A DNA stretch of 64,000 bases from the IMG/VR virus record IMGVR_UViG_2773857663_000001, positions 1 to 64,000 of that record. One strand, given 5' to 3'. The notes below the pieces were generated by a model. The model was not told where the DNA came from. It was given only the letters and a program-made list of their open reading frames with translations, and searched no databases. Below are positions 20,170 to 63,161 of this stretch, piece by piece. How positions within the stretch are numbered: position 1 is the stretch's first letter; each line of letters opens with the position of its first letter. The stretch is from a virus. Taxonomy: Duplodnaviria > Caudoviricetes. The translations under genes were made by a program, and so were the position numbers.

Positions 20170-20501
20170 GGCAAGGGGTAGTGAAAATACTCACTGAGTA
20201 AAACTATGGCAAAGCTTGGCGTTACCCTGCAGGTCACGCTATTTGTTTTTGAAAGCTTTCGGTTAAAGCGAGACTCCACCTACCTATAATGTATTTACAG
20301 CAGGTAAATACGACCTACTTTAAGTTAACGAAAGGTCTACACCCTATAATGACTTGTGACAAAGATAGAAAAGTGGTAAGAAGTTTGGGATGCTGAAAGA
20401 ACATGTTTACCCGTCTGAACACAAGTCTGGTCAGAAATTAGTGGACGACTTTTTACTTGGTTTGAATTATTACATATCACAATGAGGGGAGCGTTTTAAA
20501 A

Positions 20502-20840
20502 ATGACAGGAACAACAAACAAACGGAAGAGGACTCCTAAAGCCCCTGAGAAAGAGACTGAAACGGTTAGCCTAGATGGATTGAAGGGCGACGTAGTAGCA
20601 GAGTTTACCCAACAACTTTCTATCATGGGTCAGTTCATTTATAACGCTCAAGAAGAAGATACCACCTTGATTGTCGAGAACTTGGGCTTCGGAGATATCT
20701 ATGTCAGTGACAAACCGAATCTCCGAGTGGGCAATGAAGATCAACGTTTGCTTTTCAAGGAGCAAAAGGCGTTCAAGGCTCGGAAGCTATTTATGACTTC
20801 GGGTAGCCAGCCTGTGGCATCCATTATCGAAATCAAGTAA
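20502..20840 (+). CDS. Hypothetical phage protein
   Basis: 112 aa, SD GAGGGGG. Confidence 0.7.
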   Translation: MTGTTNKRKRTPKAPEKETETVSLDGLKGDVVAEFTQQLSIMGQFIYNAQEEDTTLIVENLGFGDIYVSDKPNLRVGNEDQRLLFKEQKAFKARKLFMTSGSQPVASIIEIK

Positions 20841-20850
20841 AGAAGTACGC

Positions 20851-21129
20851 TTGGGATGGAAGGTCCTCGATAGAACACACACCAGCCACTTAGCTTCTAA
20901 AAACCTATGGGCAGTGGGTAGACTTGGCGACAACATCCATGAGTTCAACGTCAGGAGCTCTCCTAATAGAATGAAAAAGAACCATTTAGGTATAGATTCC
21001 ACCGTCTCACTGTTCGAATATAGCCTTAATGAATTCATTTCAATGGTGGACAACGCAGTACGCAGGGCGGTTAGAAATATACCCATTTCAACTTATATTG
21101 GTATACGAAGCATTCATAAGAGGATGTGA
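20851..21129 (+). pseudogene. Probable 5'-truncated phage neck/tail-completion gene
   Basis: No SD. The 3' end is coupled to the next gene; it sits where neck genes are expected. Confidence 0.35.
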
Positions 21130-21133: not shown

Positions 21134-21595
21134 GTGGGAAAGATCAGCGTCTCTGATATTTACGCCTATATTCATTCCACGCTTCGTCAAGATCCTGAGA
21201 TTTTTGCCATGCTAGGGCTGGCGGCAGACACTTATCTGGAAGATTTGGGAACGAAGATTCAGAAGAGGAAGAAGCCACAGGACTTAGTTCAGCACAACTT
21301 GCCCTTGATTACGTTCTACAAAAATCCCGGCGCAAGAGGCGAGAATCACCTTGAGTATAGGTTCATCGTTGACTTCGATATCTATACACAGGATGACGTG
21401 GAACTGGCAGTGAACATCGCTGACCGTATTTGCCAAATTTTTGACGATCATTACTTTTGGATGCCGAAAGGAAGTGTGTTCAAAGGTGAGTATGTCACTA
21501 GTGCTGAAGACGACATCGATCTAGAGAACACCTACAAGTATTTCACCCAAATATGCTTCACCATTGGGATAGATGAATATAAGGAGGTTTTCTGA
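21134..21595 (+). CDS. Tail terminator/completion-like protein
   Basis: Directly before the tail tube gene; PLITFY...FIVDFDIY...IADRI..IF pattern; GTG start after AAGAGG. Confidence 0.6.
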   Translation: MGKISVSDIYAYIHSTLRQDPEIFAMLGLAADTYLEDLGTKIQKRKKPQDLVQHNLPLITFYKNPGARGENHLEYRFIVDFDIYTQDDVELAVNIADRICQIFDDHYFWMPKGSVFKGEYVTSAEDDIDLENTYKYFTQICFTIGIDEYKEVF

Positions 21596-22659: not shown

Positions 22660-22683
22660 AGACTCCCTTCGGGGAGTCTTTTT
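22660..22683 (+). terminator. Intrinsic terminator
   Basis: AGACTCCC-TTCG-GGGAGTCT followed by Ts. Confidence 0.9.
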
Positions 22684-22814: not shown

Positions 22815-23273
22815 ATGAGTGAACGAGATTTAGTTATCCCAAAAGCTGGCGGCATCGCTGAAGAAGTAGCCAATCAAGTTGAAGAGCAGACTCCACAGGT
22901 AACGGCTGAAGAAGATAAGAAACCACTGACCCAAGAGGAAGCTGACATTCGTGAAAAAGTATTCTTCGAGACAGATGAACAGGTTCGTTTACGTGACGGT
23001 AAGACTTATTACATCCCACCACTAGGGTTGCTTGATGCTCGAAGATTGATGAAGAGACTTAATACGATTGATTCCGGTGTAATCATCGCTAACCTTATCC
23101 CTGAAGACGAGGAAGATAGATTTGAAGAATTGCTTGAAGTACTTCTTATGGCATTTAAGCCATATTACAAACACATGACGGTCGAGCATCTTGGAGAATA
23201 CGTTGATTTGGAGACGGCTAAACAGATTATCGATTGCATGATTGGTCTCAATGGGCTAAAAAAGTCCATGTAA
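22815..23273 (+). CDS. Tail assembly chaperone (gpG-like)
   Basis: Acidic 152-aa ORF between tube and tape measure genes; ends just after a slippery heptamer. Confidence 0.8.
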   Translation: MSERDLVIPKAGGIAEEVANQVEEQTPQVTAEEDKKPLTQEEADIREKVFFETDEQVRLRDGKTYYIPPLGLLDARRLMKRLNTIDSGVIIANLIPEDEEDRFEELLEVLLMAFKPYYKHMTVEHLGEYVDLETAKQIIDCMIGLNGLKKSM

Positions 23274-23602
23274 CCACTCAGGAGGAGGAAGAAGACTATG
23301 ACAGTCAGCCGCCTGTCGATTGGGCTAACATCTTCTTCAAACTTGCCCACTATTGCCACTTGAAAAAGCATGATGTGTGGCAGTTAACCTTACCTCAGTT
23401 AGGTTACTACTTGGAACAATGCAACGAACACATTCAGTTTACGATCAAGGTTTCTACCATGTCGCTTGGCGGTCTGTTCGGCGGAAGCGTTCCTGCTGGT
23501 GATTCAACCAGTGAAGAGGAAGTAACAACTGACGGTAAATACGTGAATGGTTATAAAGTAGCCGATGCGGAAGACATGAATTTCCTTGCACAGCTATTAT
23601 AA
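23258..23602 (+). CDS. gpT-like extension reached by -1 programmed frameshift
   Basis: In-frame A AAA AAG at 23258-23264; the -1 frame is open to 23602 with VWQLTLPQL. Confidence 0.8.
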   Translation, partial: KKVHVTTQEEEEDYDSQPPVDWANIFFKLAHYCHLKKHDVWQLTLPQLGYYLEQCNEHIQFTIKVSTMSLGGLFGGSVPAGDSTSEEEVTTDGKYVNGYKVADAEDMNFLAQLL

Positions 23603-23666: not shown

Positions 23667-26600
23667 ATGAACAACAAAATCCAAACTGACGTGATTTTAG
23701 AGTTGCAGAAATCCATAGATCATATGGCTCGATATGGGCAGGAGATGGAAACTCTCGATTCTCGTTTTGGTAGATTGGACCAGCGGATTGACGCAATGCG
23801 TTCGTCCCTGTCCGGTTTGCAATCGCAGGTATCACGTGAGTCTGGAAGCAATCTCCGTCAGTCGTTGACAAATGAACTCAACAATCTCATCGCAAGGAAC
23901 GGGATTGTTCTTGAGCAGTTAGGTTCGGCTGGGCTTGCGGTTAAACCTGAGACTCTTCAAGATATCTTGGGCAAAGTAGAAAATGAAATCAACGAAGAGT
24001 TGCGGGCGCACGTTCGTAACATGCACATTGAAATTGACCCTAACTACGCCAGCGGACAGAAGCTTCCTATCACTAAAGATGGATTTGACGAGATTAATAA
24101 AGAAGTAGCCAAGGTCATCAATCTGCAAATTCGCAACCTTGTCAGTGCTATCCAGAAGCAAAAATCCAATCTGATGAAATCGGAAACTCTTGACCGTTTA
24201 CAGATTACGATTGGCAAGGAAACGGTTATGGCTTTCGTAAATAAAATCAAACAAAAGATTGTGAGTATGCTTCAGAACCCTGACGTAGCCGATGCCGGCG
24301 ACATGGAAATTTCCAAGGCAGATTTGAACAAGGTAATCAAGGAAGCTAAGGAAAAATTGTTGAAGGCACTAGATGTTGAAATTCCTGACATGAGCGGAAT
24401 GGAAGTTGCGGACAAGGTAAAGAGAATCCCTAACGAACTTGAACAAAGCCTGAATGAATACGTCAACAAAACCGTTGCAGGCATTAACACTGCAATGGCG
24501 GGCAAGATGCAGATTCCATTAGGCGACCTAAGCAAGAAGGTCAAGAAGATTCTTGCTCAGGAACTTGACACTACGGTGGACAAGCTGGAAGCGCTCGGCA
24601 CGGTCGATTTAGGATCTATTCGCGGCGCTGGATTGAAGGCTCAACTTGAACGAGTGGCAAAGGCTCTTGACAAGAAATTGAGCAACAATGTTCAGGAAGA
24701 GATTGACCAATTAATAACGGCAATAAATGATGTGCAAATCACCCCTGAACCTAAGCTGAAGCATCACCTCATGAATCAGATTAACCGCATCAACAATGCG
24801 TTGATTAACAAAATCCGTGAGCAGGTAAACGTTCAGGTGCAGTCGATCATCCAAGAGATTAATAAGGTTCAATCCGGACCAGGTGGACTTAACAGTGATA
24901 CTCAGATTCGGAATGCAGGAGGACTTGGCCTTTCTACTCCTCGTTCTGGTTCATCTTCTTCTGACAGTCAAAACAACGGTGGAGGAACTGCATCCAAAGG
25001 AGGCAGTAGCAGTGAAAAGGATAGTGGGTCGGGAGCGGTTAACGCCGAAGCTGTACAAGGGGCAATCATCAACATCATACGTCAAAGAATTTCGGGAGCC
25101 TTCGATAATGCTCTTATGATGGCGATGTCTAAAGCGGTTGAGGCATTTAAGAATATTCAGCCTGAAAAGCTTAAAATGATGCAGAACTTGAAGCAGAAGG
25201 ACGAATACAACCAAGACAAAGACGGCAACCCTCTTGGAACGACGAACATGGCTGGCGTGGAGAGTGCGGTCAGCGATCTGCAAAACTTTATCAGACAGCA
25301 GTCTATGTTTTACGGTACAGATTACAAACAGCTTTATCAAGTAGGGGGCCTCGCTTCTGGTTTGCTTGATGACCCTGTAGAGATGAAGGAGTTTGTCCGC
25401 GTAACTGCACAGTTGAATGCACTGGCTCCTGGAAGTAGTCCTGGCAATATCGCCAATGGTCTTGCCTCAACGAAGGCTCAGTTTGGACTTGGGGTGGCTG
25501 ATCTGGAGGATAGAATTGCACAACCTTTGGCGGTTGTATCCGACGTGACAAAAGCAAGTATTGAGCAAATTATTGATACACTGAAAAGTTCAGGTTCCAA
25601 AGTTGACCCTGAAACGTCAATCGTTATGGCGGGTACAACCCTCCAAGCAAAATCACTTGAAGGGGCGAATGTCAGTAACTTCTACAACTCCATTCTGAAC
25701 AGATTACAGTCTCCTAGTGCACTGAACAAGATGGATAAATCACAGGTTGATCCATACTTCGGCGAAGACAGTGCAGAAGTAGCCAACAGACTTCAATCTC
25801 CTGAAGCTATGAAAAAATTGCAGGAACTGGGTCTAGCGAAAGTTGATGACACAGGAGCAAAGATTCTTGTTCCAGCGGAGGAATTGTTTAAGTCTATTGC
25901 CGAGAAGTTGTCCGGTGCAGACAGCTCTACCGTCCGCAATACCAATGATGCTTTGTTTGGTACGTACCAATCCTCCAAAGGTGCGGCTACGATGCACGAA
26001 ATTATGAACACGTTCGTTAAGGTCATGGAGGTTAGTGGAAACTTTGATAAATCTAAATATGAGAACATGGTTAAGTCATCTGTAGACAACCCACTCGTCA
26101 ACACTAAACGGGCAGGGCAAAGCATAACCATTGCCTTTGATGCTCTTGTTCAGGAGATGACCCCTACCATCAATAAAGTGTCCTACGCACTTATGAACAT
26201 GGCAGAAAACGTGACTAAGAATGCTCAATTGTTCGTCAAGTTAGGAGACGTGTTATCTAACGTATTGCTTGGGATGATGCTACTTAAGGGAATCAAGTGG
26301 GGCGCTGAGAAACTTAGACCCAACTTCGAGAGAGAGACTGCACGCACTGCATTCCTGGAGAACGTATCGGGCATGAATGTTGATAATTCTATCAAGAACA
26401 TGAAGCGTAAAGAGGTCGGGGAGATGCAGAAAGACCCATTGCTAGGTGGTTATGTACGTGAACTGAACGGGATGACGAAAGAGCAAAGCGACCATTTTAA
26501 GAACTACCTGAAGTCTAATAAGATAGAGGTTAAAGACTTGCCGACTCTATTTAGCACGATGGGCGAAGCCAAAAATTGGAATCCGGGCAAGGAGTTGACG

Positions 26601-34106: not shown

Positions 34107-34150
34107 CAGGGAGCACTTACGCTTACGGCGCTAATTGTTCCCTGCTTTTT
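34107..34150 (+). terminator. Intrinsic terminator
   Basis: GCAGGGAGCA...TGTTCCCTGC followed by TTTTT. Confidence 0.7.
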
Positions 34151-34599: not shown

Positions 34600-34602
34600 T
34601 GA

Positions 34603-34989: not shown

Positions 34990-35004
34990 AAAGGAGGTGA
35001 TTAA

Positions 35005-46090: not shown

Positions 46091-46104
46091 GGAGGTGAGC
46101 GTGG

Positions 46105-48277: not shown

Positions 48278-48278
48278 T

Positions 48279-48303: not shown

Positions 48304-48446
48304 ATTTGCAACTTTATATAAACGTAGACCGACAACTATAGAGACAGTGCATTACACAGCAATTGTTAAGGTTTCACCTGATCAACCTATATTGATTATA
48401 GCTTGACAGAACGAGTCGAGAACTAACAATTAAGGGAGGAAACAAA

Positions 48447-48914: not shown

Positions 48915-48948
48915 GATTTTATTTTCAATGTGATAGGGGGCAACGAAA

Positions 48949-52924: not shown

Positions 52925-52940
52925 GAAGGAGGTGAGATGA

Positions 52941-54494
52941 ATGTCAACAAAGAGCATAATGAACACTAACGGCAATAACACTTCGTTCACGTTCCCTCGT
53001 ATCCCGTCTGCCCGTTCCCTTAAGTTTTACGGGACGGGTGCAGTATATGGGCACGGTGGAACTACTTACGTAGATGTTTATGACGATGACACCAAGACGT
53101 GGGTAAACATCAAAGCCTTGACAGGCAACCCTTACCTTGTCCAGCAGTTCGGGACAATTACGTTTACCAAGCGATCAATCTCCGGTGTGCGGTGGAGAAC
53201 TACTGCTCACTGGCACGGTACTCACAGTGCTATGGGCATTACGGTAGACTACCAGGCGGCAGTTGTAGGTGGGGTGAACCTGACTGCTTCAATCCATAAA
53301 CAAGACTTTAGCTACTACGGTCAAATGTCCCATGAAGATGGGCTACAGGCTCAGTGGAAGATTCTTGTTAATGGCATACAGAAGTACCCTGCCAGTGGGT
53401 ACACCACGTTAACTAGCGTACCGTTCAACTTCGGTAAGAATCTTCCTCACACTGATTTTAATATTGGTACTAACACGGTGCAGATTGAGACAAGGGATTC
53501 AGGCGGCAATATCGAGACGTTTGCCTACACCATGACCAAGGTAAATGCCACACCAACGGTGGTGGCTCAGTTGTCTGCTAAGGTGATTCACGGTCAAGAT
53601 ATAAAGCTTAATACTACATTTAATGATGCCAACACCGATGACAAGGTTCAGTACAGGGTACTCCTGAACAACGTCCAGCGATTCCCGAGTTCTGGATTTT
53701 CAGCCCTTGAGAATGTACCTGCTACGCTTTCTATTGTCTTCAGTAACTCCGAACTGAATGTGGGAACAAACACTGTCAGAGTAGAGTTCAAAGATGATTG
53801 GGGGGCGGCAGGAACTTGGACAGAGACAATAACGAAGCTTAATGCCGTACCTACATTGACAGGAAACATGTCAGGACTGACCCTAAACGCCACAATTAAC
53901 GACACAGACGGCGATGACGTTAGATATCGAATCCTGATTAATGGGATTCAGGTGTTCCCTGAAAGTAACTATACGACATTGCTAAATGTACCTTTAGAAA
54001 TAAAGTATACTCTGTCAAGTCATCAGGTTAACATCGGAAGCACCAACTTAATTAGGGTCGAGTACGTAGATTCTATCGGCAGTATCGGGGCTTGGGAGAA
54101 ACCCTTCATTGCCGACTTTGCAGGACTCATGTTCTGTGATGAAGCTGAGACCTACTACTCTACAGATTTGGGGGAGATTCTGAAGTACCTTGACTTCGGT
54201 ACAATTGTGGCTGGTCAGACCTCAACCGCTGAACGTGTATGGCTGAAGAACACGCTAGGGTATCCGGTAGAGGAAATCCAGTTATGGAACACGCAAGGGG
54301 AATTGGATGGCGTGAATGCCAAGGCTGAAATCAGCTATTCGACAGCACCGTTCGAAGCAATGGATGTTCTGGAATTTGCTGACCAACTGAACCACGGCGA
54401 GAAGATTCCATTATATGTACGAATTGTCACAAATAGGTTTGCGGCATACGGCGGCATGTTCGATATTTACGTTAAGGCAGACCCCGTATTGTAA
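52941..54494 (+). CDS. Ig-like repeat protein, paralog of 49604-52924
   Basis: Three of the same repeats; C-terminal LDFGTIVAGQTS domain. Confidence 0.8.
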   Translation: MSTKSIMNTNGNNTSFTFPRIPSARSLKFYGTGAVYGHGGTTYVDVYDDDTKTWVNIKALTGNPYLVQQFGTITFTKRSISGVRWRTTAHWHGTHSAMGITVDYQAAVVGGVNLTASIHKQDFSYYGQMSHEDGLQAQWKILVNGIQKYPASGYTTLTSVPFNFGKNLPHTDFNIGTNTVQIETRDSGGNIETFAYTMTKVNATPTVVAQLSAKVIHGQDIKLNTTFNDANTDDKVQYRVLLNNVQRFPSSGFSALENVPATLSIVFSNSELNVGTNTVRVEFKDDWGAAGTWTETITKLNAVPTLTGNMSGLTLNATINDTDGDDVRYRILINGIQVFPESNYTTLLNVPLEIKYTLSSHQVNIGSTNLIRVEYVDSIGSIGAWEKPFIADFAGLMFCDEAETYYSTDLGEILKYLDFGTIVAGQTSTAERVWLKNTLGYPVEEIQLWNTQGELDGVNAKAEISYSTAPFEAMDVLEFADQLNHGEKIPLYVRIVTNRFAAYGGMFDIYVKADPVL

Positions 54495-54596
54495 CGCACC
54501 ACCTAATAATTATGAAGCCCTCCGACCTATAATGTAGGGGAGGGTTTCTTAATAGATTCGACAATTCCAATACAATGGGAATGGAAGTGATTTTCA

Positions 54597-57500
54597 GTGG
54601 CATATTTAACATATTACTTTACCAATGCAGGTGTCACTGGACGGACGGGCGGCACACAGGCTCAGTTTGACTCCGCATATAGCAACTCCCTGCTTAAAGG
54701 ACAGGTAACGGTATACTCCGGTATTCAGGAATGGGTCGTTCCTCTAGCGGGCACGTATCAATTAGAAGCTTGGGGCGCACAAGGTAGCGGAGGTAACGGT
54801 AACACAACTTCCGGTGGTAAAGGCGCATATGTAAAATCCGAAGTGTTCCTTAACGCAGGAGACATTCTTTACATCTTGGTCGGTCAGGCAGGAACGTACA
54901 ACGGTGCTTCCGTAAGTGATGGTTCTGGTGGTGGCGGTGGCGGTGCTTCCATTATCGCACGTAAGCTGGTGGCTGGCGGCTACAACATGACCGTAACAGG
55001 TCTTAGCGGAACTAGGGTTGAGCCTTTGATTGTGGCGGCAGGTGGCGGTGGCTCGAATGACGGTAGATACCGTAGCCCTATTAACGGAACATCGGGTGTA
55101 GGTACTCCTTACGGTGGCAACCTTGCGAATCAGAACTTGTTTACTACATCCTTCCTAAATGGCGGGGGAGGTACAACATACTCCCGTGGCGGGAGTACAG
55201 GTAATGGTGGTTTCGGTGGTGGTACGGTAGCCGATGATAACCAAAGTCCCGGCGGTGGCTGGTATCAAGCAAGCTTTACTGCTTACTCTTACTACACAGG
55301 GGATAACGTAGTAACTTCCAACGGCAACCGTTCAGGTCAAGGTGCTGTAACAATTACAAGACTGAATACTCCACCGATGATTACGGGCGAATTGAAAGAT
55401 GGGCATGTAGTAAAAGCTACCATTCAAGAAGTTGATGGACATGAAGTCAGCTACCGCATCTTGGTTAACAGAGAGCAAGTCTTCCCTAAAAACAAAGAGT
55501 GGACGGATTTTGCACTTGCGCCAGTTGAAATAGAGTTTGACATTACGGGGATTATGTTGACCAATAGCGGCAGTAACATGATCACTATAGAGTACAAGGA
55601 TACCATAGAGACAGGCACTCCCTTATACCTCCTGATTCCTCAATATAACATGGTATCGAGCATCGACGCTAAACAGATTAACGAGATTCCAAGTTCCCTT
55701 GAGATTTTGAACAAGGACGACTTCGACGGCGTGGTTGATATTTATACCCCAAACAAGTGGTATGAGGGTGGCTACATCGTCAACGACCAATCGACCGTCC
55801 TGAACTGGACTAGAGGTACTGTCTCTAACGGTCAGTGGACGGACTCAATCGGGGCAAGCACGGTAACAGCAACGTACAGATACCCTTGGCAGTATGTGCA
55901 AGGTACTCCGATTGAACTTGAGTTCCATTACAACGTAGCGTCCTACGGGTCGAACTACTACGCCGAATTGAACATGGGTCTTCTTCACATTTATTTCCAC
56001 CGTGATATTGACGACTTCATTCAGGTACGTAGCGGCACTGGCTGGATTAAACACATCGTAGCGGCTAACTTCACGAAGGGTAACAACATATGGAAGCTGG
56101 TTTACGGTAAAGAGGGAGATTACACGGTATACCGGAACGGCGAGTTTGTAGTATCCGGTAAAGCAGTTCCCCCTGCCACCATGAACGTGACACCTACCTC
56201 TGTGATAAACAATGAGCAAGTTTACATTGATTACTTCACAGTGAAGGCATTGCCTTACGGGTTATACGATGCACGTTCTAGTGTTTACCCGCTGTACCGT
56301 TCTGACATGGACACGTACTACGATGTAGTCAGTGACTACGGTTACGATGATCAAAGGTACTTAGTATTCAACGGCTCGAACACGGAGATCACGTTCGCTA
56401 AGGATTGGGGAACTACCGGACAAGGTATCGACCCAATTACTGTCGAAGGATGGTTCTGGTTCGATAGCGGCAGAACGACAAACTGTATTTGGGGTCACAA
56501 CACGGCATCTGGTGCGAACACACTCCTGTTAGGTGTTTGGGGTGGGCAGTATAACATTGATACGAACAACGGAATGACTACAACCTATGGAGACAGAGCG
56601 TTCTCACTTTACAACCAGTGGGTACACATTGCGTTCTCTATGGATGGTACAGTCGCTTCCATCTACGAGAACGGTGTTCTTAGATGGAAAGGCATAGTCG
56701 GAGCACGTGGCACTTATAACCGTAATCCGCAGATTGGTCAGGATTACGACAACTCGTCTAAGACTGACTACTTCAAAGGACGTATGCGTGACTTCCGTGT
56801 CTGGAATGAAGCCCGAACAGAAGAGCAAGTGAACCGCTACATGAACACTTGGGTCATGGGTATCGAGCCGCACTTGATGGTAAATCTTCCATTCAATGAC
56901 GCCACAGGTTCGGTAGTCAAAGACAAAACTCGTAGAGCGTACAACGGGACGGTTTTGGGTACACCTGTTTGGGGTGGAAACTACGCATACACCCATAAGC
57001 TCCGTTCGTCTATTAATGTCGTTATTCGTGGTGACGCATCTCTCAATAGTAGCTTGACGGTTAACCCTAACCCGAACTACATGAAAGAGTTTACCGACCC
57101 CGACAACCGTGTGGACATTACTCCTACAATGAGCGCTGACACAGTAGGTGCGTATAGGGTAGTTGCTTCGTCCGTGTTGAGCACCACCTACTCTGCATTT
57201 AAAGCCTTTAACCATACAGTGACTGGCACAGGAGACTCATGGCTTACTCCGGTGGCAAATATGCCAGCTACGCTGGACTTTTACTTCCCTGAAGGAGAGT
57301 TAAATCAGGTAACGGGCTACGCTATCAACATGACTCGCTCGTATACAGAAGCACCGAAGAGTTGGACAATCGAAGCGTCTCATGACCGTGGGGCTACGTG
57401 GAGAGTCATTCATGCAGTGGTGGATGACGCTCGGACAACGACAGGGTGGAGATACTACAACGTCCCTGCCCAATACGAAGGCTACAATGCTCTTCGTATT

Positions 57501-60500
57501 AAAGTTACCAACAACATGGGGAGCAACAGCTACGTAAGCATTAATGAGATGTACTACTTCGCTTCTGATTATCGTTACGGTTATCAGATGCCATCCAGTG
57601 CTATTGTTTCTGAGAGAAGTAATTTGTCCAGTTGGCTGTACGCCAATACAGGTACTTCCTATGATGGAGAAAAGTACGGGAGTGAGAGAACATCTTACAT
57701 CACTGCACGGCAGGGTGTAAACAACGACATTAAATCCCGTGTCGCTGTAACATTAGGTAACACAGCCATCGGTGAAGTTGAGATTATCGGGTTACTTCAT
57801 GACTACCTGCCATCCTCTATCCAAGTCAACGAGATTACAGAATTTGAGGGAAGCATCAAGGCAAGGCAGACAGAGTACGATGAAATCGACAGTAGCCTGA
57901 CAGTCGTTCGGTACGACGACTCGGAAATCAAGGGTTGGATTCAGACCCGATACAATAATGATGTACCTTCAGCCCTGAAGATTCGTGCGGGCAACAAAAT
58001 GTCGGCTTTGGTCAACATCGCACAGCCAATTTCTACAACGGTGAAGTACAATCCTCTCCGGGACGCATTCGTTCGTTCGGCATTACCTAAAATCAACTAC
58101 GGTAGTGAGCAGTCATTAGTGGCTGGCTTCGGAGCATCTAGGAACGAGATTTACAGGTCGCTATTTGCGTTCGACGTTTCCCCTGTGGTTAACCTGCCTG
58201 AAGGGTTTGAGGTATCCAAGGCTGAACTGAGATTGAAATATGCGAAAGGTTCTGCGAAGCCTACGAAGGACTTGAGACTGTACACAGCCCTAGCTGAGTG
58301 GGCAGAACTTGGTGTGACGTGGGATAACAGACCGGAGATGGGCGAAGAGGTTGACGGGGCAGGCACATACACCGTTAATGAAGCCGATGCCTATATCGCA
58401 TTCAACTTGACAGACCTGATTGTCGGTAAGCGTGATGAACAAGACCCAAGCGTAAACCTTTACCTGAAAGCGGTGGAAGAGATTGGGCAAGCCCTGTACT
58501 TCTACTCGAAGGAAATGGGAGTTGATTACTCCCCTGAGTTAGTCGTTACCTACATTGACTACCGTATCTGGAGTTACGACAAGTCTGAGATTACGGCAAG
58601 TATTTACCCTAAGAAACGTGCTAATAAAGACGTGAAGTCCTTCCTGAAGGTTAAAGGTATTGCAGGAACTTTGGAATTACCTTCCTCCCTGCACGTTTTA
58701 CAGCCGGGGGAACGGGAAAGTAGTATTGCAGTTAACCGACCTGACATGTCAACGTCTATCGAAATCAGGCAGTCTGATAAGGACATAATCAACTCTAGCC
58801 TGACCATTCGAGAAGTAGGTATTTTCGACTTCGCAGATATTGTGGTGATGGTCACTCAGCCGAACATGCACGGTACAATCATCGTTCCTCACCATAAAGA
58901 CACACCTGCCAGCTTGTCTGTAAGGTTGGATGGGTACGATGAAATCATCACTTGGATGACTGCCAGCCAGCCTTCGATGGTCTCCACGATTTACGTAACT
59001 CCTTACGTAGACTGGGCGGGGTCAGTGACAGTAAGGCACTCGGATGAATCTTTGATTGATGGAAATATGGTGGTCAGTACACCGGACAGAGCGGGTATGG
59101 TATTCGTCCCTTACACTGAAGACTTGGCTTCGAGCATCATAGTCAAAAATACAACTGACTTTGACACGCCATCGACATTCATGGTGTCGAGAGACTTTAT
59201 CTTCAACACGATAGAGGTCCTGAATCGCTATGATAAAGTTTCCAAGATTCGAGCAAGACGGGAAGATGAATCTGAAATTTGCGGGGCGCTCAACGTATCG
59301 TGGAGACGAATCCCATCAAGCATCTTCGTAAGAGGGCGCAACGATATCACTTCTACCTTAACAGTTCGTAACGAAGACCATGCTGAAGCAGATAGTTTGA
59401 TTGTTATTAGCCGACCAGACTTCGCAGGAGGGATTCAACCAAGAATCTTCATTGAACTGCAAGGAACGGCTAGTGTTCAACGTACAGAGGGCGACGACCA
59501 GAACAGCAGTCTTTATGTTTTAGAGCGGAAGAATATTCCTTCAAAGATGGATATCGTCGGAGCGAGTATGATTCCTTCGAGCATTCATGTGCTCTCAGGA
59601 TATCTAAACTCCCATATCCGTGTTCCTAACTACGGGCATAGTGATATACCGTCCAGCCTGACGCCAAGGCTTAGAGGGGCATCTGATATCCCTACAACTA
59701 TTTTCGTAGTGTCAAACTCCAATCTGCCTTCGACAGTGATCGCGAGACGTAAAGAAGTCTCCGACATTCCGACACAGGTTGTGGCAAGACAGAACGAAGA
59801 CGATGACATTCCTTCGACCATCAACACGTTGCAGTTTAGTTTGATTGACGGAAGCATCGCGGTTAGAAGGGAAGCTTCAGATGACGTACCATCGAGCACA
59901 TACATCCTTCATCACAAGGAAATTAAGGGTAGGCTCTTCGTAAGAGGGTACAGCAACCTTCCGTCCAGCATTCTAGCAGTGATTCGAGATAACTATGACG
60001 TTCCGTCCAGTATTTATCCTAAATCACGGGATGTTAGTGATATCCCGACAGCGCTTGACATTAAATTCCGTGGTAAAAGCGGCCTGAAAGCAAAAGTGGG
60101 CGTTTCGTATACCGGACGAATGAAAGCCATTGTGGATGTTACACCTCCTAAAAGAACGACTCACTTTGCAACGGCAGTTAAAGACGCATATGTCCGCGAG
60201 GGCATCCCAACACTAAACTACGGTGCTGAAGCATCTCTCGTAATCGGTAGCAAGGTTAGCGGTGGTGATAGATTCAGAACCCTATTGGGGTTTGATATCT
60301 CCCAAGTTCCGCAACACCAAGATGTAGAGAGTGTAGTTCTGAAGCTTCATTACTCTCCGTCGAGTCCAGCACCCACTAAAAAATACCGTGTGCTTGTGAC
60401 CAAAGACTTCGATGAATACGGCGTAACATGGAAGAACCAGCCATCCGTTATCAGAGAAGTTACCCTGGATAGTAATAACTATGCTGTTAACAGTCAAGAA

Positions 60501-63110
60501 CACTTTATCACGTTCGACATTACGGAGTACGTGAATGATGCGTACCTGACCCGTAATACAGATTTGAGGTTCTATGTAGTCTCTATGGACGAGACTGAGG
60601 GTGGGGAGACATGGTACTTCTCAAGGGAGTCTGGAAAGGAAGTCACACCGAAGGTTGAGGTTACTTACTTCGACAGCACTCCGGTAAGCTACGGTCGCTC
60701 CGAGCTGCCTTCCTCCATCGGGATTATCAGTTCCGTTGTCAAGCACGACACGCCATCGAAGATTAAAGTCGTTCCACCACTGGATTGGATTTTGGTTGAC
60801 AGACCGAACATCACTCTCCACGCTTGGGATAACGGGGCTCAAGACGGCGATATTGTTAACATCTACATTACCAACAGCAAGTACCCTGAGCGTAAGTTGC
60901 TCAAGGAAAACTGGCTCATGCACATCCCTGCTAACATCAATATCATGGACTACCTTGACATTGAATTAGAAGAAGGCATGAACACCATCTACTACGAAGG
61001 TGTATCGAACGGTAGTGCAGGTTCGGCGCTTACGTCCGCTATAAGGTGGCAGGAGTACGGAAGCAGAATCCATAACGCAGCATTCCCACCACTCATGGTG
61101 AAAGATGTAGGTAGCCACTGGATTCCAAGAACCAGCAACGAGTTTGAAGCCAGCATTGCCGCAACTTCAGGTACTATTGTTAACGGTAGATGGCAAGACC
61201 CTAAACCTTATCGCACATGGAAGATTGTACGTCCGTCTCATAGAGATGTGCCTTCTAGCCTTGAGGTTACACGGAACAACTGGTTAGCGTCGAGCATGAC
61301 GGTTTCTACCCCTGATAAACAGAGTAATCTGACTGTACGGCGTAGTAGCCTATCGGAAATCCCATCGAGCATTAATGCAAGAAGCTTGAACTTTATTGAA
61401 CTGGAAGGTCTGGTTGCGGTATCGAGACCTGACCTTGGCGCTTCGCTGTATGTCAATAACAGATACGATATTCCGTCCACGATTCGTCCAAGGGTAGTAG
61501 GGGAAGCGGAACTGCAAACGTTCATCCAAGTCTCTAGGGGCGACATGGGCGGCTCGGTAGTGGTAACTCCTGCTTATAGCGTGGATTCCAGTGTTATCGT
61601 AAGGGTAGCAAGAGATTCGGATATCTTGTCTTTGATTGCGGTAAGCAAGCCTGACATTGAGGGGTCAATCGACATTCTGGAACGGAATGACCTTCCTTCC
61701 ACCATCACTGTCTCGACCAAAATCCATAAAGATACCGCTGGCGTGATTATCGTAAACAGCCCTAACCTTGTGTCTGACGTTTACGTTCTCAATAGATTCG
61801 ACATTCTGTCTGTAATCGGTGTTCCTTTCAACGAAGAGGATATGCTGGCGGGGAGCATCGTAGTCAGTCGCCCAGACCTGATCGAAACCATCTATGTCTT
61901 GTACAGAGATGACATTGACGGTAGAGTTAGGGTTAAGGCGGCACGAGATAATGATATTCCTTTCTCTATTCATGTTCGTGACCGTTATGATAAACTATCT
62001 AGCCTTGAAGTCATTGGGGCAAGCATGTTACCGTCCAGTATCCAAGTTCTATCCGGTTGGCTTGCAAGTACAATCAAAGTACCAACGTACATGTATGACG
62101 ACCTCGACAGCGTAATCACGGTACGCTGGTCGCAAGAGGAAGACATTGAATCGGTAATCAATGTTACACACCGATTTGATACGCCGTCAATGGTTATCGT
62201 AAAGAGGGAAGACAGCAGTGATACTGATGGGGACCTGACGGTTCGTAGAACTGATTGGGATGAAGTACCATCGACCATCTTTGTTCGTCAGTTGCTTGAC
62301 ACACCGTCCACGGTTGTAGCTAGACAGTCCGATTTGTACGACATTCCTGCGAACCTGTGGGTACTCGAACGGGGCGATCTGCCAGGGACAGTTTATGTGC
62401 GGTATCGCTCGGACTTGACCGGAAGTATTACGGTAAGACGTAGTGACATTTCTGATATCCCTGCAAACGTCCATGCACGGGGCAGAATGGTTAGCAACAT
62501 CCCTTCGAGCATCAACGTAATGTATAGAGGAAACTCTGACCTACGTTCTCGGATTGCAGTACCGCCACACAACAAGATGACGGCTAAGGTCTTCATTATC
62601 CCTGTGGGCGACTCGGACATTGTGTGCTCCATCACCGTTCGTCAGTTCGGAGACAGTGACCTGCTTTCGAGCATCGCCGTTAGAAGAACAGACAACTACG
62701 ATATGGTCAGCACCATCACCGTAAGACATACGGACAACAGCGATATTCCTTCTACGATTGATGTATGGGAGAAGTCCTTGCTTCCTTCTGAAGTAGCCGT
62801 AAGGCGAACAGAGTACAGCGACCTTCCTACATTCATCACCGTACACGAAGTGAGTGACCTGCCAAGTACGATTACGGCGAGACGCACAGAGTGGAGTGAA
62901 ATCCCAAGTACCATCGTCGCAAGGCAGTTCGGTGACAGTGACCTCAAGTCCTCCATCAGAGTTGCCCAATCTGTAAATGTTGACCTCCCTAGTACAATTG
63001 ACGTTTGGTATTTTAGAACTATCCCATCCAGTATTTATGTACTATACCACGCTGACGTTACTGGTTCTATTGAGGTAATCGCAGACTACGGATACTGCTT
63101 CATTATGTAA
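54597..63110 (+). CDS. Giant fibre protein (2837 aa): Gly-rich domain, LamG, discoidin-like, two DNRLRE/CBM96-like domains, short beta repeats
   Basis: EAWGAQG...GGKGA; WVHIAFS...YENG; APKSWTIEAS; two RDA.VR...P..NYG.E..L...E.GVTW domains; many D(I/L)PS(S/T)I.V repeats. Confidence 0.85.
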   Translation: MAYLTYYFTNAGVTGRTGGTQAQFDSAYSNSLLKGQVTVYSGIQEWVVPLAGTYQLEAWGAQGSGGNGNTTSGGKGAYVKSEVFLNAGDILYILVGQAGTYNGASVSDGSGGGGGGASIIARKLVAGGYNMTVTGLSGTRVEPLIVAAGGGGSNDGRYRSPINGTSGVGTPYGGNLANQNLFTTSFLNGGGGTTYSRGGSTGNGGFGGGTVADDNQSPGGGWYQASFTAYSYYTGDNVVTSNGNRSGQGAVTITRLNTPPMITGELKDGHVVKATIQEVDGHEVSYRILVNREQVFPKNKEWTDFALAPVEIEFDITGIMLTNSGSNMITIEYKDTIETGTPLYLLIPQYNMVSSIDAKQINEIPSSLEILNKDDFDGVVDIYTPNKWYEGGYIVNDQSTVLNWTRGTVSNGQWTDSIGASTVTATYRYPWQYVQGTPIELEFHYNVASYGSNYYAELNMGLLHIYFHRDIDDFIQVRSGTGWIKHIVAANFTKGNNIWKLVYGKEGDYTVYRNGEFVVSGKAVPPATMNVTPTSVINNEQVYIDYFTVKALPYGLYDARSSVYPLYRSDMDTYYDVVSDYGYDDQRYLVFNGSNTEITFAKDWGTTGQGIDPITVEGWFWFDSGRTTNCIWGHNTASGANTLLLGVWGGQYNIDTNNGMTTTYGDRAFSLYNQWVHIAFSMDGTVASIYENGVLRWKGIVGARGTYNRNPQIGQDYDNSSKTDYFKGRMRDFRVWNEARTEEQVNRYMNTWVMGIEPHLMVNLPFNDATGSVVKDKTRRAYNGTVLGTPVWGGNYAYTHKLRSSINVVIRGDASLNSSLTVNPNPNYMKEFTDPDNRVDITPTMSADTVGAYRVVASSVLSTTYSAFKAFNHTVTGTGDSWLTPVANMPATLDFYFPEGELNQVTGYAINMTRSYTEAPKSWTIEASHDRGATWRVIHAVVDDARTTTGWRYYNVPAQYEGYNALRIKVTNNMGSNSYVSINEMYYFASDYRYGYQMPSSAIVSERSNLSSWLYANTGTSYDGEKYGSERTSYITARQGVNNDIKSRVAVTLGNTAIGEVEIIGLLHDYLPSSIQVNEITEFEGSIKARQTEYDEIDSSLTVVRYDDSEIKGWIQTRYNNDVPSALKIRAGNKMSALVNIAQPISTTVKYNPLRDAFVRSALPKINYGSEQSLVAGFGASRNEIYRSLFAFDVSPVVNLPEGFEVSKAELRLKYAKGSAKPTKDLRLYTALAEWAELGVTWDNRPEMGEEVDGAGTYTVNEADAYIAFNLTDLIVGKRDEQDPSVNLYLKAVEEIGQALYFYSKEMGVDYSPELVVTYIDYRIWSYDKSEITASIYPKKRANKDVKSFLKVKGIAGTLELPSSLHVLQPGERESSIAVNRPDMSTSIEIRQSDKDIINSSLTIREVGIFDFADIVVMVTQPNMHGTIIVPHHKDTPASLSVRLDGYDEIITWMTASQPSMVSTIYVTPYVDWAGSVTVRHSDESLIDGNMVVSTPDRAGMVFVPYTEDLASSIIVKNTTDFDTPSTFMVSRDFIFNTIEVLNRYDKVSKIRARREDESEICGALNVSWRRIPSSIFVRGRNDITSTLTVRNEDHAEADSLIVISRPDFAGGIQPRIFIELQGTASVQRTEGDDQNSSLYVLERKNIPSKMDIVGASMIPSSIHVLSGYLNSHIRVPNYGHSDIPSSLTPRLRGASDIPTTIFVVSNSNLPSTVIARRKEVSDIPTQVVARQNEDDDIPSTINTLQFSLIDGSIAVRREASDDVPSSTYILHHKEIKGRLFVRGYSNLPSSILAVIRDNYDVPSSIYPKSRDVSDIPTALDIKFRGKSGLKAKVGVSYTGRMKAIVDVTPPKRTTHFATAVKDAYVREGIPTLNYGAEASLVIGSKVSGGDRFRTLLGFDISQVPQHQDVESVVLKLHYSPSSPAPTKKYRVLVTKDFDEYGVTWKNQPSVIREVTLDSNNYAVNSQEHFITFDITEYVNDAYLTRNTDLRFYVVSMDETEGGETWYFSRESGKEVTPKVEVTYFDSTPVSYGRSELPSSIGIISSVVKHDTPSKIKVVPPLDWILVDRPNITLHAWDNGAQDGDIVNIYITNSKYPERKLLKENWLMHIPANINIMDYLDIELEEGMNTIYYEGVSNGSAGSALTSAIRWQEYGSRIHNAAFPPLMVKDVGSHWIPRTSNEFEASIAATSGTIVNGRWQDPKPYRTWKIVRPSHRDVPSSLEVTRNNWLASSMTVSTPDKQSNLTVRRSSLSEIPSSINARSLNFIELEGLVAVSRPDLGASLYVNNRYDIPSTIRPRVVGEAELQTFIQVSRGDMGGSVVVTPAYSVDSSVIVRVARDSDILSLIAVSKPDIEGSIDILERNDLPSTITVSTKIHKDTAGVIIVNSPNLVSDVYVLNRFDILSVIGVPFNEEDMLAGSIVVSRPDLIETIYVLYRDDIDGRVRVKAARDNDIPFSIHVRDRYDKLSSLEVIGASMLPSSIQVLSGWLASTIKVPTYMYDDLDSVITVRWSQEEDIESVINVTHRFDTPSMVIVKREDSSDTDGDLTVRRTDWDEVPSTIFVRQLLDTPSTVVARQSDLYDIPANLWVLERGDLPGTVYVRYRSDLTGSITVRRSDISDIPANVHARGRMVSNIPSSINVMYRGNSDLRSRIAVPPHNKMTAKVFIIPVGDSDIVCSITVRQFGDSDLLSSIAVRRTDNYDMVSTITVRHTDNSDIPSTIDVWEKSLLPSEVAVRRTEYSDLPTFITVHEVSDLPSTITARRTEWSEIPSTIVARQFGDSDLKSSIRVAQSVNVDLPSTIDVWYFRTIPSSIYVLYHADVTGSIEVIADYGYCFIM

Positions 63111-63118
63111 TGAAGAAG

Positions 63119-63149
63119 CCCCTACCTTACTCGGTAGGGGTTATTTTTT
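63119..63149 (+). terminator. Intrinsic terminator
   Basis: CCCCTACC-ttactc-GGTAGGGG-TTATTTTTT. Confidence 0.8.
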
Positions 63150-63161
63150 GCCCAAAATTAC

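Follow-up and report, generated by a model that had tools for sequence, protein, structure and literature searches.

A headless relative of phage Jenst in Paenibacillus that probably makes a large, F-type-like non-contractile tailocin

How can a long run of phage tail genes remain intact when the head that such a tail would serve is gone? We met this question in a window of 64,000 nucleotides (positions 1 to 64,000 of the IMG/VR virus record IMGVR_UViG_2773857663_000001), in which a preliminary description, made from the sequence without database searches, had noted a headless and apparently domesticated 42-kb non-contractile tail and fibre machine. A megablast of the 20-44 kb region against GenBank phages found no match; a protein-level search revealed Brevibacillus phage Jenst (Jenstvirus; NC_028805), a siphovirus of 126,341 bp. 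At the level of protein comparison, the gene order of the element is that of Jenst except for the head block. The headless element occupies the window from 18.1 to 64 kb and extends further along the record, itself a fragment (CheckV completeness 64%), reaching 84.16 kb or beyond. We consider it probable that the element descends from a 126-kb siphovirus of the Jenst type, is now chromosomal and without its head, and makes an F-type-like tailocin.

The correspondence with Jenst is close over much of the element. Orthologues follow in the same order from gp176 through the endolysin, most tail proteins being 52-84% identical (the 1289-aa protein 34%), and the two have in common the SLH protein, the M23 hub, RCC1-like fibres, the position of the integrase, replisome genes and sigma factors. 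Up to position 46944, and again for gp143 and gp142, ORF lengths equal those of the Jenst orthologues end to end (element vs Jenst: tape measure 1733 vs 1738 aa; 1165 vs 1159 aa; 606 vs 605 aa). Beyond 47024 several proteins are mosaic: a 417-aa ORF resembles Jenst gp144 in its C-terminal part only, and three distal fibre proteins align to Jenst in part only. Jenst differs in its intact head block (terminase, portal, capsid, head completion), its six tRNAs and its genes for thymidine kinase, RNR and ligase, and it has some 40 kb more of early genes; its early block lies on the opposite strand, and its PolA is split around an endonuclease gene, whereas the element's record holds PolA as a single 863-aa ORF. 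Jenst and the contig L009 are the head-bearing close relatives, and comparison with them shows which genes the element lost. A full TerL, portal and capsid module and an intact recombinase, as a functional temperate phage of Jenstvirus would have, are missing from it.

The left part of the element, from its junction with host sequence to the last of the head-gene remnants, holds the following features.

18048-18101, plus strand: last 17 codons of host glnA, read from the sequence; the element's left junction
18106-18137, plus strand: terminator hairpin (terminator scan)
18240-18311 and 18316-18389, minus strand: two tRNA-like genes (Rfam RF00005, 40.1 and 43.3 bits)
18771-19013, plus strand: gp176-like small ORF, conserved (PHROG match)
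19117-19377, plus strand: gp174-like small ORF, conserved (PHROG match, tblastn)
19555-19682, plus strand: large-terminase relic 1, residues 248-290 of a 558-aa TerL (tblastn with the L009 and Jenst TerL, blastn)
19674-19718, plus strand: large-terminase relic 2, residues 540-554 of 558 (tblastn)
20414-20473, plus strand: portal relic, residues 123-142 of 490 (tblastn)
20502-20840, plus strand: gp164-like head-completion remnant, first ~45 residues missing (tblastn)
20923-21126, plus strand: gp161-like head-completion remnant, C-terminal third (tblastn)

In G078, a closed chromosome, and in L020, a full 451-aa glutamine synthetase terminates at this same glnA junction (Pfam, tblastn, blastn). 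The tRNA-like pair occupies the place of Jenst's six-tRNA block (Jenst 7177-8575); ARAGORN recognises one of the two, with an abnormal anticodon loop, which agrees with their initial reading as tRNA relics. Within the window's clade the element is found in two circularly permuted insertion forms, one on the glnA side (the window, G078 and L020) and one with the early block first (G002 and L022). Both carry the same head-deletion scars, and therefore the element may have moved after the head was lost. Two contigs bearing the species label of the best holder (X21 and X23) match only 18048-18101 and 18050-18115, with unlike sequence following on both sides; given partial contig cover, the position after glnA seems to be vacant there. 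The right end of the G078 element carried no direct repeat matching the segment at the glnA end, so no att pair is defined. A scan for LexA (Cheo) boxes gave a single match with one mismatch, at chance level and outside the element, and identified no induction signal; promoter-like sites also occurred at chance level.

Where Jenst has its head module, the terminase, portal, scaffold-region and capsid genes of the element have shrunk to relics of 15-43 codons. Several deletions took out TerL, the portal, two genes between portal and capsid, and the major capsid protein, together with most of the head-completion genes. The terminase earlier suspected of being broken thus survives as two relics, and the portal, which like the capsid and sheath had escaped recognition, as one. 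The two small ORFs ahead of the relics (PHROG 32445 and 29009) are conserved, and at 20 of the 21 headless loci the gp174-like one has been retained immediately ahead of the tube gene or of whatever head-completion relics remain. A sheath protein, the mark of an R-type tailocin or contractile injection system, is also missing: Phage_sheath_1 matched nothing in six frames of the record, with positive controls, and the scanned ORFs were likewise negative. Nor are there head genes with which to form the DNA-packaging capsids of a PBSX-like element or GTA.

Might cognate head genes reside elsewhere? No Jenst-type head gene lies on the 84-kb record. None of 93 genomes of the genus had the Jenst-type capsid, nor did any in two further sets of carrier or relative genomes (0 of 5 and 0 of 4), and the Jenst-type portal and TerL were found in 0 of 4 carrier genomes; in G078 all three are absent genome-wide. 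The positive control, G095, matched the capsid, portal and TerL queries alike. In a family sample, capsid matches turned up in 2 of 401 genomes, at just 25% identity; neither of the two has the tube gene. The search for head and packaging genes that had been proposed as a check, beyond 64 kb or elsewhere, therefore found none on the record or in the relatives' genomes. Pfam HK97 capsid and portal families also gave no match on the record, a result that counts for little, since the capsid, portal and gp167 of Jenst itself are without a Pfam match. The relics prove that the head genes proper to this tail were lost by deletion at their own site.

The tail block follows directly.

21134-21595, plus strand: gp160-like protein, intact (76% identity to Jenst gp160, full length; PHROG 32412)
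From 21596, plus strand: tail tube protein, 352 aa (83% identity to Jenst gp159, 'virion structural protein')
22660-22679, plus strand: strong terminator-like hairpin directly after the tube gene (terminator scan)
22815-23273 and 23234-23602, plus strand: chaperone pair of G/GT type, frames 0 and -1 (orthologues of Jenst gp158 and gp157)
23667-28868, plus strand: tape measure, 1733 aa (PHROG 32382 'tail length tape measure protein', 1989 bits; 52% identity to Jenst gp156, full length)
28927-29547, plus strand: SLH-domain protein, 206 aa (Pfam SLH, E 2e-4; PHROG full-length match)
To 30594, plus strand: 347-aa protein after the SLH protein (PHROG full-length match)
30600-34097, plus strand: protein with peptidase M23 and 3D (cell-wall hydrolase) domains, 1165 aa (Pfam M23 8e-28, 3D 3e-12; PHROG 36429)
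34135-39192, plus strand: four virion proteins of 154, 128, 886 (PKD domain) and 492 aa (PHROG 5955, 9258 'virion structural protein'; Pfam PKD)
39281-44997, plus strand: 606-aa DUF2460 protein and 1289-aa protein (Pfam DUF2460 2e-13; PHROG 11431, 28065)
45008-49554, plus strand: five tail-tip proteins of 360, 279, 417, 155 and 201 aa (PHROG; orthologues of Jenst gp146-gp142)
49604-63110, plus strand: three distal fibre or receptor-binding proteins, a variable cassette (Pfam, PHROG)

An unbroken plus-strand run of 24 ORFs extends from 20502 to 63110. From 21134 onwards there are 22 of these, or the 21 co-oriented intact ORFs first counted if the chaperone pair is taken as one, and with a tube, a frameshifted chaperone pair, a tape measure, a tip and fibres, but no sheath, they make up the siphovirus-type tail module that had been recognised from the letters. 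The gp160-like gene (dN/dS 0.25-0.33) is, by its position, a candidate for the tail-completion or terminator protein. The tube assignment is favoured by the place of the gene, with the chaperone pair and tape measure next in line, by the identity to the Jenst protein and by an Atlas lead (nearest clusters carry PF27173 YomU_Tube, score 0.98), but not by a confident fold, since the AF2 model is poor (pLDDT 57.7 from an 18-row alignment, confident in an inserted central domain only) and a profile search of PDB sequences gave no match. In the chaperone pair, a canonical -1 slippery heptamer, A_AAA_AAG, is found at 23258-23264, 7 nt (two codons) upstream of the stop of the first ORF.

Beyond the tape measure, the SLH protein and its 347-aa neighbour match PHROG 32188 and 29574; Pfam finds SLH in one protein only, so the plural 'SLH proteins' of the preliminary description is not borne out. 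The M23/3D protein is a candidate for the wall-piercing enzyme of the tail tip, judging from its domains. The 886-aa and 492-aa virion proteins are paralogues, and the 606-aa and 1289-aa proteins are probably the baseplate or hub core, the hub role being one that we infer. The distal fibres comprise proteins of 1106 aa (RCC1-like and LamG), 517 aa (RCC1-like) and 2837 aa (a glycine-rich domain, LamG and two CBM96 domains). This cassette is only 31-47% identical in amino acids to those of G078 and G002 and cannot be aligned by megablast, whereas neighbouring genes are 90-99% identical; to judge by this pattern, fibre cassettes have clearly been exchanged between elements. As for tail length, the first estimate of about 250 nm was a reasonable one: the 1738-aa tape measure of Jenst goes with a tail listed as 286 nm (PMC4909266, Table 2), and for the element we predict ~260-290 nm.

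At the right edge of the window the tail block gives way to a damaged recombinase and, just past the edge in the same record, to lysis genes.

63158-64000, with homology to 64033, minus strand: tyrosine recombinase pseudogene (Pfam Phage_integrase on a 222-aa ORF)
64100-64447: hol-like ORF
64449-64790: second small ORF (weak holin-family match)
64808-65587: amidase endolysin (Amidase_2)

The recombinase is 62% identical to the Jenst integrase over 261 aa, extending past the ORF, and the two lesions attributed to it were both located: its N-terminal part is interrupted by an in-frame stop, and a frameshift puts the segment with the catalytic Tyr out of frame. Erosion has gone further in G078, and G002 has no orthologue at that position. 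The three ORFs beyond are orthologues of Jenst gp137-gp135. The impression that holin and endolysin are lacking was thus mistaken, the genes lying immediately outside the window, and the record does carry a lysis cassette as expected of an F-type tailocin. Past 64 kb there is also a full replication module (dN/dS of its genes 0.15), and phage sigma factors are retained. Decay has reached the early region as well, leaving relics of a ligase, a RecB-like gene and a transglycosylase; all recognised lesions lie outside the 42-kb tail block.

A separate observation concerns a gp075-like 'virion structural protein' at 77964-79082 of the contig. Its AF2 model (pLDDT 84.7) combines a beta-sandwich with a helical domain and has an invariant HExxH motif. 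Foldseek returned nothing at E <= 0.001; among its weak rows were zinc metallopeptidase chains (TM ~0.26) and, with TM lower still, several viral coat proteins of the jelly-roll type as well as two entries for phage capsids. Model and search together lend no support to this protein as a hidden major capsid.

Is the tail block merely a recent leftover, or has it been maintained since the head was lost? The deletion junction between the portal and gp164, with its neighbours, is contiguous and common to the window, G078 and G002, and therefore head loss is older than their split. Relatives with these common scars differ by dS 0.14-0.21. The tail genes give dN/dS 0.12 between the window and G002 (14 ORFs, 6772 codons, dS 0.21) and 0.15 between the window and G078 (16 ORFs), where the aggregates exclude ORF pairs with dS > 0.8 or undefined (4 of 18 pairs for window-G002, 3 of 19 for window-G078 and, for the second clade described below, 1 of 26 for G080-G023). 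Neutral simulation at 0.1 substitutions per site yields a mean of 94 stops and breaks ~17 of 18 ORFs; we observe zero. Some tail segments have dS > 1 and fibres are swapped, and therefore part of the 'purifying' signal could come from functional phages. Allowing for such gene flow, these comparisons support a tail maintained by selection in the host lineage. The claim of selective retention is upheld by the shared scars, by dN/dS well below 1 after the loss and by the recurrence of the headless layout, and neutral evolution of the tail genes, named as a possible refutation, is contradicted by dN/dS values of 0.12-0.19.

This recurrence is seen across the genus. Among 28 related loci the layout is headless at 21, the head is present at 6, and 1 is ambiguous; the headless loci include those of 11 named Paenibacillus genomes, together with a genome labelled Bacillus sp. 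and a Brevibacillus laterosporus genome, and two of the loci with less than 900 nt upstream (L010 and L013) were counted via their identical genome counterparts (L031 and L026). Of the 93 genomes of the genus, 35 carry the tube gene, 14 of them at 69-99% identity, as do 13 of the 401 in the family sample. In a tree of this single gene the headless forms are not one clade: there are 4 label changes, at least 2 of them forced by well-supported branches. The nearest relative is G078, with a tube 99% identical, whose element spans glnA to an IS transposase and maps block by block to Jenst late or early genes, none to head genes. A further, more distant tail-only cluster adjoins rib/scpA genes. Two sequencing runs (X14 and X16, the RNA label being a guess) cover 20 kb evenly, non-coding relic region included; their reads are probably DNA, and they are therefore uninformative on expression.

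A second clade (the G080 group) carries a smaller element at one syntenic site in 5 species, with the element and both flanks collinear across them; the comparison covered 5 of the clade's 9 genomes, those with single large contigs. This element has no replication genes and a tape measure of 286 aa, and its 25 ORFs give dN/dS 0.19; of the lysis genes only the hol-like one was found, and a Jenst-type endolysin was not recognised. Its dS of 0.31 is half the 0.70 of its flanks, so gene flow is likely and strict co-divergence is not borne out. While all six head-bearing relatives have tape measures of 1738-1768 aa, several headless lineages have shortened ones (1614, 1524, 1495, 1481, 1133 and 286 aa). 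Because a living head-bearing phage relative, a headless form that has both head-gene relics and a replisome, and a reduced, syntenic, fixed form coexist in one genus, the order of losses can be read directly: the head went first, the integrase second and the replisome third, and the tape measure was shortened last. The word 'domesticated' suits the second clade much better; the window's clade, with its two insertion points, better fits a recently mobile element than a long-settled organ of the host.

What, then, does the tail do? The head is lost, while selection has left the genes for tail, lysis and control intact, and the most likely product is a tail-only killing particle. On our best reading of the genes, the element would be a tailocin of F-type-like, non-contractile build, roughly three times the size of any that we found described. 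Selection appears to have kept the tube, the G/GT chaperones, the 1733-aa tape measure, the wall-hydrolase hub and ~15 tip or fibre proteins, along with the hol-like gene, the second small ORF, the amidase, the phage sigma factors and, in the window's clade, the replisome. Upon induction, the late operon would be transcribed under the sigma factors, headless, flexible, non-contractile tails of the predicted length would assemble, and the producer would be lysed through the holin-like and amidase genes. With their exchangeable LamG/CBM96 fibres the free tails could then attach to carbohydrates in the walls of related strains, the M23/3D protein would cut peptidoglycan, and killing might follow by membrane puncture or depolarisation, as with an F-type tailocin. 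Several points count against the tailocin reading: the two insertion forms, which suit a mobile element, the signs of gene flow, a tube-gene tree in which the headless forms are not one clade, a second clade in which the endolysin was not recognised, a tube fold that lacks confident support, and a full replisome under purifying selection, which is not a feature of described tailocins.

The last of these leads to the alternatives. Element-encoded tails might join foreign heads, in a still-mobile element that has its own replisome and lysis genes and depends on another phage or island for capsids and packaging. Capsid-forming islands that borrow helper tails are the mirror image of such an arrangement; of a helper-dependent headless tail element we know no precedent. 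Intact replication genes, two permuted insertion forms with the same scars and a kept, constrained gp160-like gene beside the tube, possibly a head-tail joining part, speak for helper dependence, but the integrase is broken, a small terminase or pac function was not recognised, the head-completion genes are eroded here and wholly lost in other lineages, and the second clade keeps its tail at a fixed locus without replication genes, so that we rate it as rather unlikely. A broader version, which we think unlikely, makes the window's clade not yet a host organ but a self-replicating headless derivative, with replisome, sigma factors, lysis genes and tail, that still moves between chromosomal sites and strains, borrowing capsids or supplying tails, and makes Paenibacillus a stage series from phage to tailocin; the members of that series would be the window's clade, the fixed replisome-free clade with its short tape measure, and the tail-only cluster on the rib/scpA side.

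Could the tail serve something other than killing, as an SLH-anchored surface or spore adhesion appendage, or as a standing stock of tail and fibre genes that incoming Jenst-like phages could recombine with? An SLH domain protein within the tail module, the many carbohydrate-binding domains and the exchange of fibre cassettes would suit such roles, which we nevertheless find distinctly unlikely: lysis genes are kept beside the tail, the free phage Jenst carries an SLH protein too, so that this protein belongs to the tail and is no newly gained anchor, and the 286-aa tape measure of the fixed clade would hardly be useful to a 126-kb phage. It is very unlikely that we are looking at a decaying, functionless cryptic prophage whose tail is intact by chance or because of recent loss. 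Head relics, a broken integrase and the early-region relics are what decay would leave, and Jenst-like regions are tabulated as ordinary 'intact' prophages (PMC12643537); against this, the lesions all lie outside the tail block, the common scars sit at dS 0.14-0.21 with tail dN/dS 0.12-0.15 where neutrality would predict tens of stops, and there are 21 headless loci and synteny across 5 species in the second clade. That the phage is complete, with head genes past the end of the record or in a non-homologous module, is barely credible, even though the record is a fragment and Pfam, having no families for Jenst head proteins, gives weak negatives; the closed G078 element lacks a head block from glnA to the IS transposase, and that genome lacks the Jenst-type capsid, portal and TerL altogether.

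Returning to the tailocin, how does it compare with known systems? The F-type pyocins of Pseudomonas aeruginosa resemble it in having a headless non-contractile tail with tube, chaperones, tape measure, tip, exchangeable fibres and lysis genes. Their cluster is far smaller than the element. They also differ in being Gram-negative and lambda-like, with no sequence relation to the element seen, and in lacking a replisome, phage sigma factors and a wall-hydrolase hub of the element's kind. Their tape measure is described as an assembly scaffold (bioRxiv 10.64898/2026.02.24.707460). Gram-positive non-contractile tailocins are few in the literature searched, namely the monocins of Listeria and the efagins of Enterococcus faecalis, described as chromosomal headless non-contractile clusters that are intact across strains, with lysis genes and carbohydrate-targeting binding domains (bioRxiv 10.64898/2025.12.13.693970). 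The same source gives the efagin locus as 14.6 kb and the particle as 160 nm; the element has a tail and lysis block of ~46 kb, a predicted tail of 260-290 nm, 22 tail ORFs and a 2837-aa fibre, and the window's version, unlike monocins and efagins, still carries a replisome and head-gene relics. No PHROG or Pfam match pointed to monocins or efagins. PBSX-like elements, including the Brevibacillus laterosporus bacteriocin (Babar et al. 2022), are inducible defective Bacillales prophages that kill related strains; they are described as contractile, with the sheath protein XkdK, and as keeping capsid and terminase genes (PMC9406221), whereas the element has no sheath family match and no head genes. 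The Atlas match of the tube protein to YomU_Tube clusters is a lead, no more, towards SPbeta-type tails. SPbeta has a very long tape measure and an M23 wall hydrolase in its tail and, unlike the element, is a complete phage.

Our search of the literature outside subscription journals found no paper on a non-contractile tail-only element in Paenibacillus. The efagin authors write that missing intermediates obscure the origin of such machines (bioRxiv 10.64898/2025.12.13.693970), and the element shows intermediate steps in the taming of phages by bacteria, in a machine about three times the size of the efagin locus and with exchangeable carbohydrate-binding fibres. The P. polymyxa group is used in crop biocontrol, and a prophage-tool table lists Jenst-like regions in its genomes as ordinary prophages, 'intact' being what prophage finders currently call them (PMC12643537). 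If those regions are the headless element, it could shape strain competition and the performance of inoculants.

A last observation concerns the sequence to the left of the glnA junction.

1-18047: low-GC island, 28-38% GC, outside the tail element (GC profile and Pfam)

Its proteins include SRAP, YolD-like, DnaD/HTH-like, Cu_amine_oxidN1 and fn3 families by Pfam, and the LexA-box match mentioned above falls within it. The 'HTH replication gene' counted earlier among the broken phage functions belongs to this separate island and is an intact ORF (17060-17443). The island has no counterpart in G078, G002, G004 or G080, except for three ORF fragments (11188-12000, 13033-14031 and 13798-14061) that match G002 some 18 kb beyond its element, and two Paenibacillus plasmids give 82% matches over 7% and 2% of its length.

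A protein-level search finds Brevibacillus phage Jenst, a head-bearing siphovirus of 126,341 bp, which we compare with the whole record (hereafter the contig) using the Jenst annotation and tblastn of every Jenst ORF. The contig is 84,160 nt long, with the window as its first 64,000 nt; it holds no N and no terminal repeat, and IMG/VR types this virus record as linear, with an estimated completeness of 64% (CheckV). By tblastn, Jenst 8.7-60.8 kb is collinear with contig 18.7-65.9 kb and Jenst 108.6-70.5 kb, inverted, matches contig 66.3-84.1 kb, many early genes being missing from the contig. The late-region block that is also missing comprises Jenst gp175, gp173-171, the large terminase, gp169, the portal, gp167, gp166, the major head protein, gp163, gp162 and the first two thirds of gp161. 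Relics of this region are left in the contig:

19555-19682, terminase relic, aa 248-290
19674-19718, terminase relic, aa 540-554
20414-20473, portal relic, aa 123-142
gp164 relic, starting at about residue 46
gp161 relic, the last third

The relics imply at least five separate deletions within roughly 9 kb of head genes, and none is seen in the neighbouring 42 kb. The "recombinase with two lesions" of the preliminary description is an integrase homologue (64033-63158, minus strand), and both lesions are there: an in-frame stop, and a frameshift that puts the catalytic-tyrosine segment out of frame.

On the plus strand, 24 ORFs run without interruption from 20502 to 63110. The run of co-oriented ORFs previously reported from 21134 is indeed uninterrupted, with a count of 22 in place of 21. 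Pfam and PHROG scans of the window ORFs identify the following:

Plus strand, tape measure of 1733 aa (PHROG 32382, 1989 bits)
Plus strand, SLH protein
Plus strand, 1165-aa protein with peptidase M23 and 3D domains
Plus strand, DUF2460 protein
Plus strand, PKD, LamG and RCC1-like parts
Plus strand, 2837-aa protein with a glycine-rich domain, LamG and two CBM96 modules

Ahead of the tape measure, a pair of ORFs overlaps in frames 0 and -1 and contains a canonical slippery site, A_AAA_AAG, at 23258-23264. The gene of the predicted tube protein, whose family name (YomU_Tube) is a lead from the Atlas, is followed by a strong hairpin with a T-run. Neither ORF scans nor a six-frame search of the contig finds a sheath.

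Past the window, the contig carries lysis and early genes:

64100-64447, hol-like gene
64449-64790, small ORF with a weak holin-family match
64808-65587, endolysin (Amidase_2)
73176-75767 (L001:9176-11767), family-A DNA polymerase, a single intact 863-aa ORF
77964-79082 (L001:13964-15082), gp075-like protein of 372 aa, orthologue of Jenst gp075 "virion structural protein"

Further genes here encode replication proteins (DnaD-like, DnaC-like loader, DnaB helicase, primase) and a sigma factor. In Jenst the polymerase gene is split into three parts around a gene for an endonuclease; the contig copy is unbroken. The preliminary description had recognised no portal, capsid, sheath, holin or endolysin; this stands for the first three, but a hol-like gene and an endolysin adjoin the window. 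The gp075-like protein (dN/dS 0.06-0.11) is present in the fuller headless forms examined (genomes G078, G002 and G004) and is a fragment of about 160 aa in the clade of genome G080. Its predicted model shows a beta-sandwich at the N terminus and a C-terminal domain in which an HExxH motif is invariant; it matches no Pfam family, and its structural matches are weak, zinc metallopeptidases among them.

Could the head genes lie elsewhere? Pfam scans and Jenst tblastn find no head genes of any kind in the final 20 kb of the contig. The Jenst capsid is found in 0 of 93 genomes of the genus around P. amylolyticus and 0 of 5 in a further set, and portal and terminase in none of four carrier genomes; all three are detected in the control genome, G095 (E 6e-152 or better). 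The search for cognate head genes, in the contig beyond 64 kb and in the genomes of relatives, agrees with the headless state first described. Across a family sample of 401 genomes the tube occurs in 13 and the capsid in two, at 25% identity, both without the tube gene. Within the genus, the tube protein matches 35 of the 93 genomes, at 96-99% (n=4), 83% (n=1), 69-71% (n=9) or about 41% identity (n=21).

The headless state is not peculiar to the window record. With the tube protein as query we collected loci with 10-kb flanks from 14 viral contigs and from representative genomes of 14 species, and tested all 28 loci with 19 Jenst proteins (tblastn). The full head block is present in six (Jenst, L009, L016, L017, L018 and the Bacillus tequilensis contig L033), one (L032) is unclear, and the TerL-to-capsid block is absent from 21, in which the tube gene adjoins a gp174-like gene or gp164/gp160 remnants. 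These 21 include 11 named Paenibacillus genomes, Bacillus sp. FJAT-27264 (as labelled) and one B. laterosporus chromosome.

The deletion junctions of the window recur in the closed chromosome G078, whose tube is 99% identical, and in P. amylolyticus G002; each of the three has also eroded slightly further. Head loss therefore predates their divergence. We aggregated dN/dS since then, dropping ORF pairs with dS above 0.8 or undefined. For tail genes it is 0.12 against G002 (14 ORFs, 6772 codons, dS 0.21) and 0.15 against G078 (16 ORFs, 8422 codons, dS 0.14), which supports the selective retention proposed earlier for the tail; for lysis and early genes it is 0.15 against G002 (18 ORFs, 4286 codons, dS 0.24). 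Neutral simulation of 18 tail ORFs (21134-49554; 0.1 substitutions per site, 30 runs) gives a mean of 94 stop codons (minimum 77) and breaks about 17 of the 18 ORFs, against zero stops observed. Gene flow may inflate this signal of constraint. Genes at 41-49 kb have dS > 1 against G002, which indicates recombination tracts, and the three distal fibre genes (49604-63110) are only 31-47% identical among elements otherwise 90-99% identical (window, G078, G002). This is wholesale cassette exchange, as in receptor-binding genes of phages and tailocins.

A reduced form of the element occurs in the 70% group. In five closed genomes (G080, G071, G023, G081, G082) it is collinear together with both flanks, with a PTS/antiterminator operon on one side and an M24 aminopeptidase gene on the other. 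It retains a gp174-like gene, tube, chaperones, SLH protein, hub and fibres, as well as a hol-like gene and two phage sigma factors (element coordinates 52-56 kb, L046) and the gp075-like fragment; replication genes and a Jenst-type endolysin were not found in it. Between G080 and G023 the element has dN/dS 0.19 and dS 0.31 (25 ORFs), and the flanks dS 0.70 (41 ORFs). Its tape measure is only 286 aa. All six relatives that bear heads have tape measures of 1738-1768 aa, and several headless lineages have shorter ones (1614, 1524, 1495, 1481, 1133 or 286 aa), which suggests that a constraint tied to the complete virion was lifted.

In its set of parts the element matches a non-contractile tailocin that has late regulators and lysis genes of its own, and we consider this, with reasonable though not strong confidence, the most likely function; induction, assembly, release and killing would each be steps of it. 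Scaled from Jenst, whose tail measures 286 nm with a tape measure of 1738 aa (Table 2 of PMC4909266), the tail would be about 260-290 nm long, close to the roughly 250 nm first estimated. The replisome may have been kept to raise the copy number of the locus ahead of lysis, or it may be the sign of continuing mobility. This lends some weight to the main alternative, a headless element that still moves with a helper, which we judge improbable. The fuller headless element lies at different sites. In G078 and P. vandeheii (L020) it begins directly after glnA, in G004 glnA follows it at a distance of about 6 kb downstream, and in G002 and L022 the early block is upstream of the tail. In G002 the two ends of the G078-form element meet to within about 12 nt (G002 L034-L038, L080-L081; G078 L039-L043). 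The two forms are circular permutations of one map at different chromosomal sites, yet have the head scars in common, and the simplest reading would be reinsertion of an already headless circular molecule. In the tube-protein tree, head-bearing L009 lies beside the window's clade (support 94/87, under the strict threshold), and the head label changes four times, at least two changes being forced by well-supported branches; a single origin of headlessness is therefore not established, and repeated head loss or recombination with phages is possible.

GC content is 28-38% in the first 18 kb of the contig and 42-51% in all that follows, and therefore two different things are joined at about 18.05 kb:

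1-18047, unrelated low-GC island with SRAP (SOS-response peptidase), YolD-like and DnaD/HTH-like genes, Cu_amine_oxidN1 and fn3 proteins
18048-18137, the last 17 codons of glnA, all that the window retains of it, and the glnA terminator

Parts of the island are 82% identical to two Paenibacillus plasmids, and it resembles another mobile element, one that inserted beside the tail element on its glnA side.

We found no description in the literature of a non-contractile tail-only element in Paenibacillus. The prophage table of PMC12643537 labels Jenst-like regions in several P. polymyxa-group genomes "intact", and that table does not remark on missing heads. The phage tail-like bacteriocin of B. 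laterosporus (Babar et al.; PMC9406221) is described as PBSX-like and contractile, and is thus a different thing. Efagins of E. faecalis are reported as a 14.6-kb, 160-nm headless non-contractile system, with monocins as their Listeria counterpart (bioRxiv 10.64898/2025.12.13.693970).

A third, more distant tail-only cluster, of the tube class at about 41% identity (21 of 93 genomes), is seen in genomes G007 (L074-L076) and G010 (L077-L079), with no head genes seen upstream. It encodes a 277-aa tube (about 41% identity), a 1291-aa tape measure, an SLH-like protein, a hub and proteins of 1906 and 1551 aa, and lies a few kb downstream of host genes, namely gerA, a lysA-like decarboxylase, ribD, ribBA and scpA. 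In G010 several ORFs are shortened and may be broken; the cluster is syntenic in the two species, with dN/dS 0.01-0.28.
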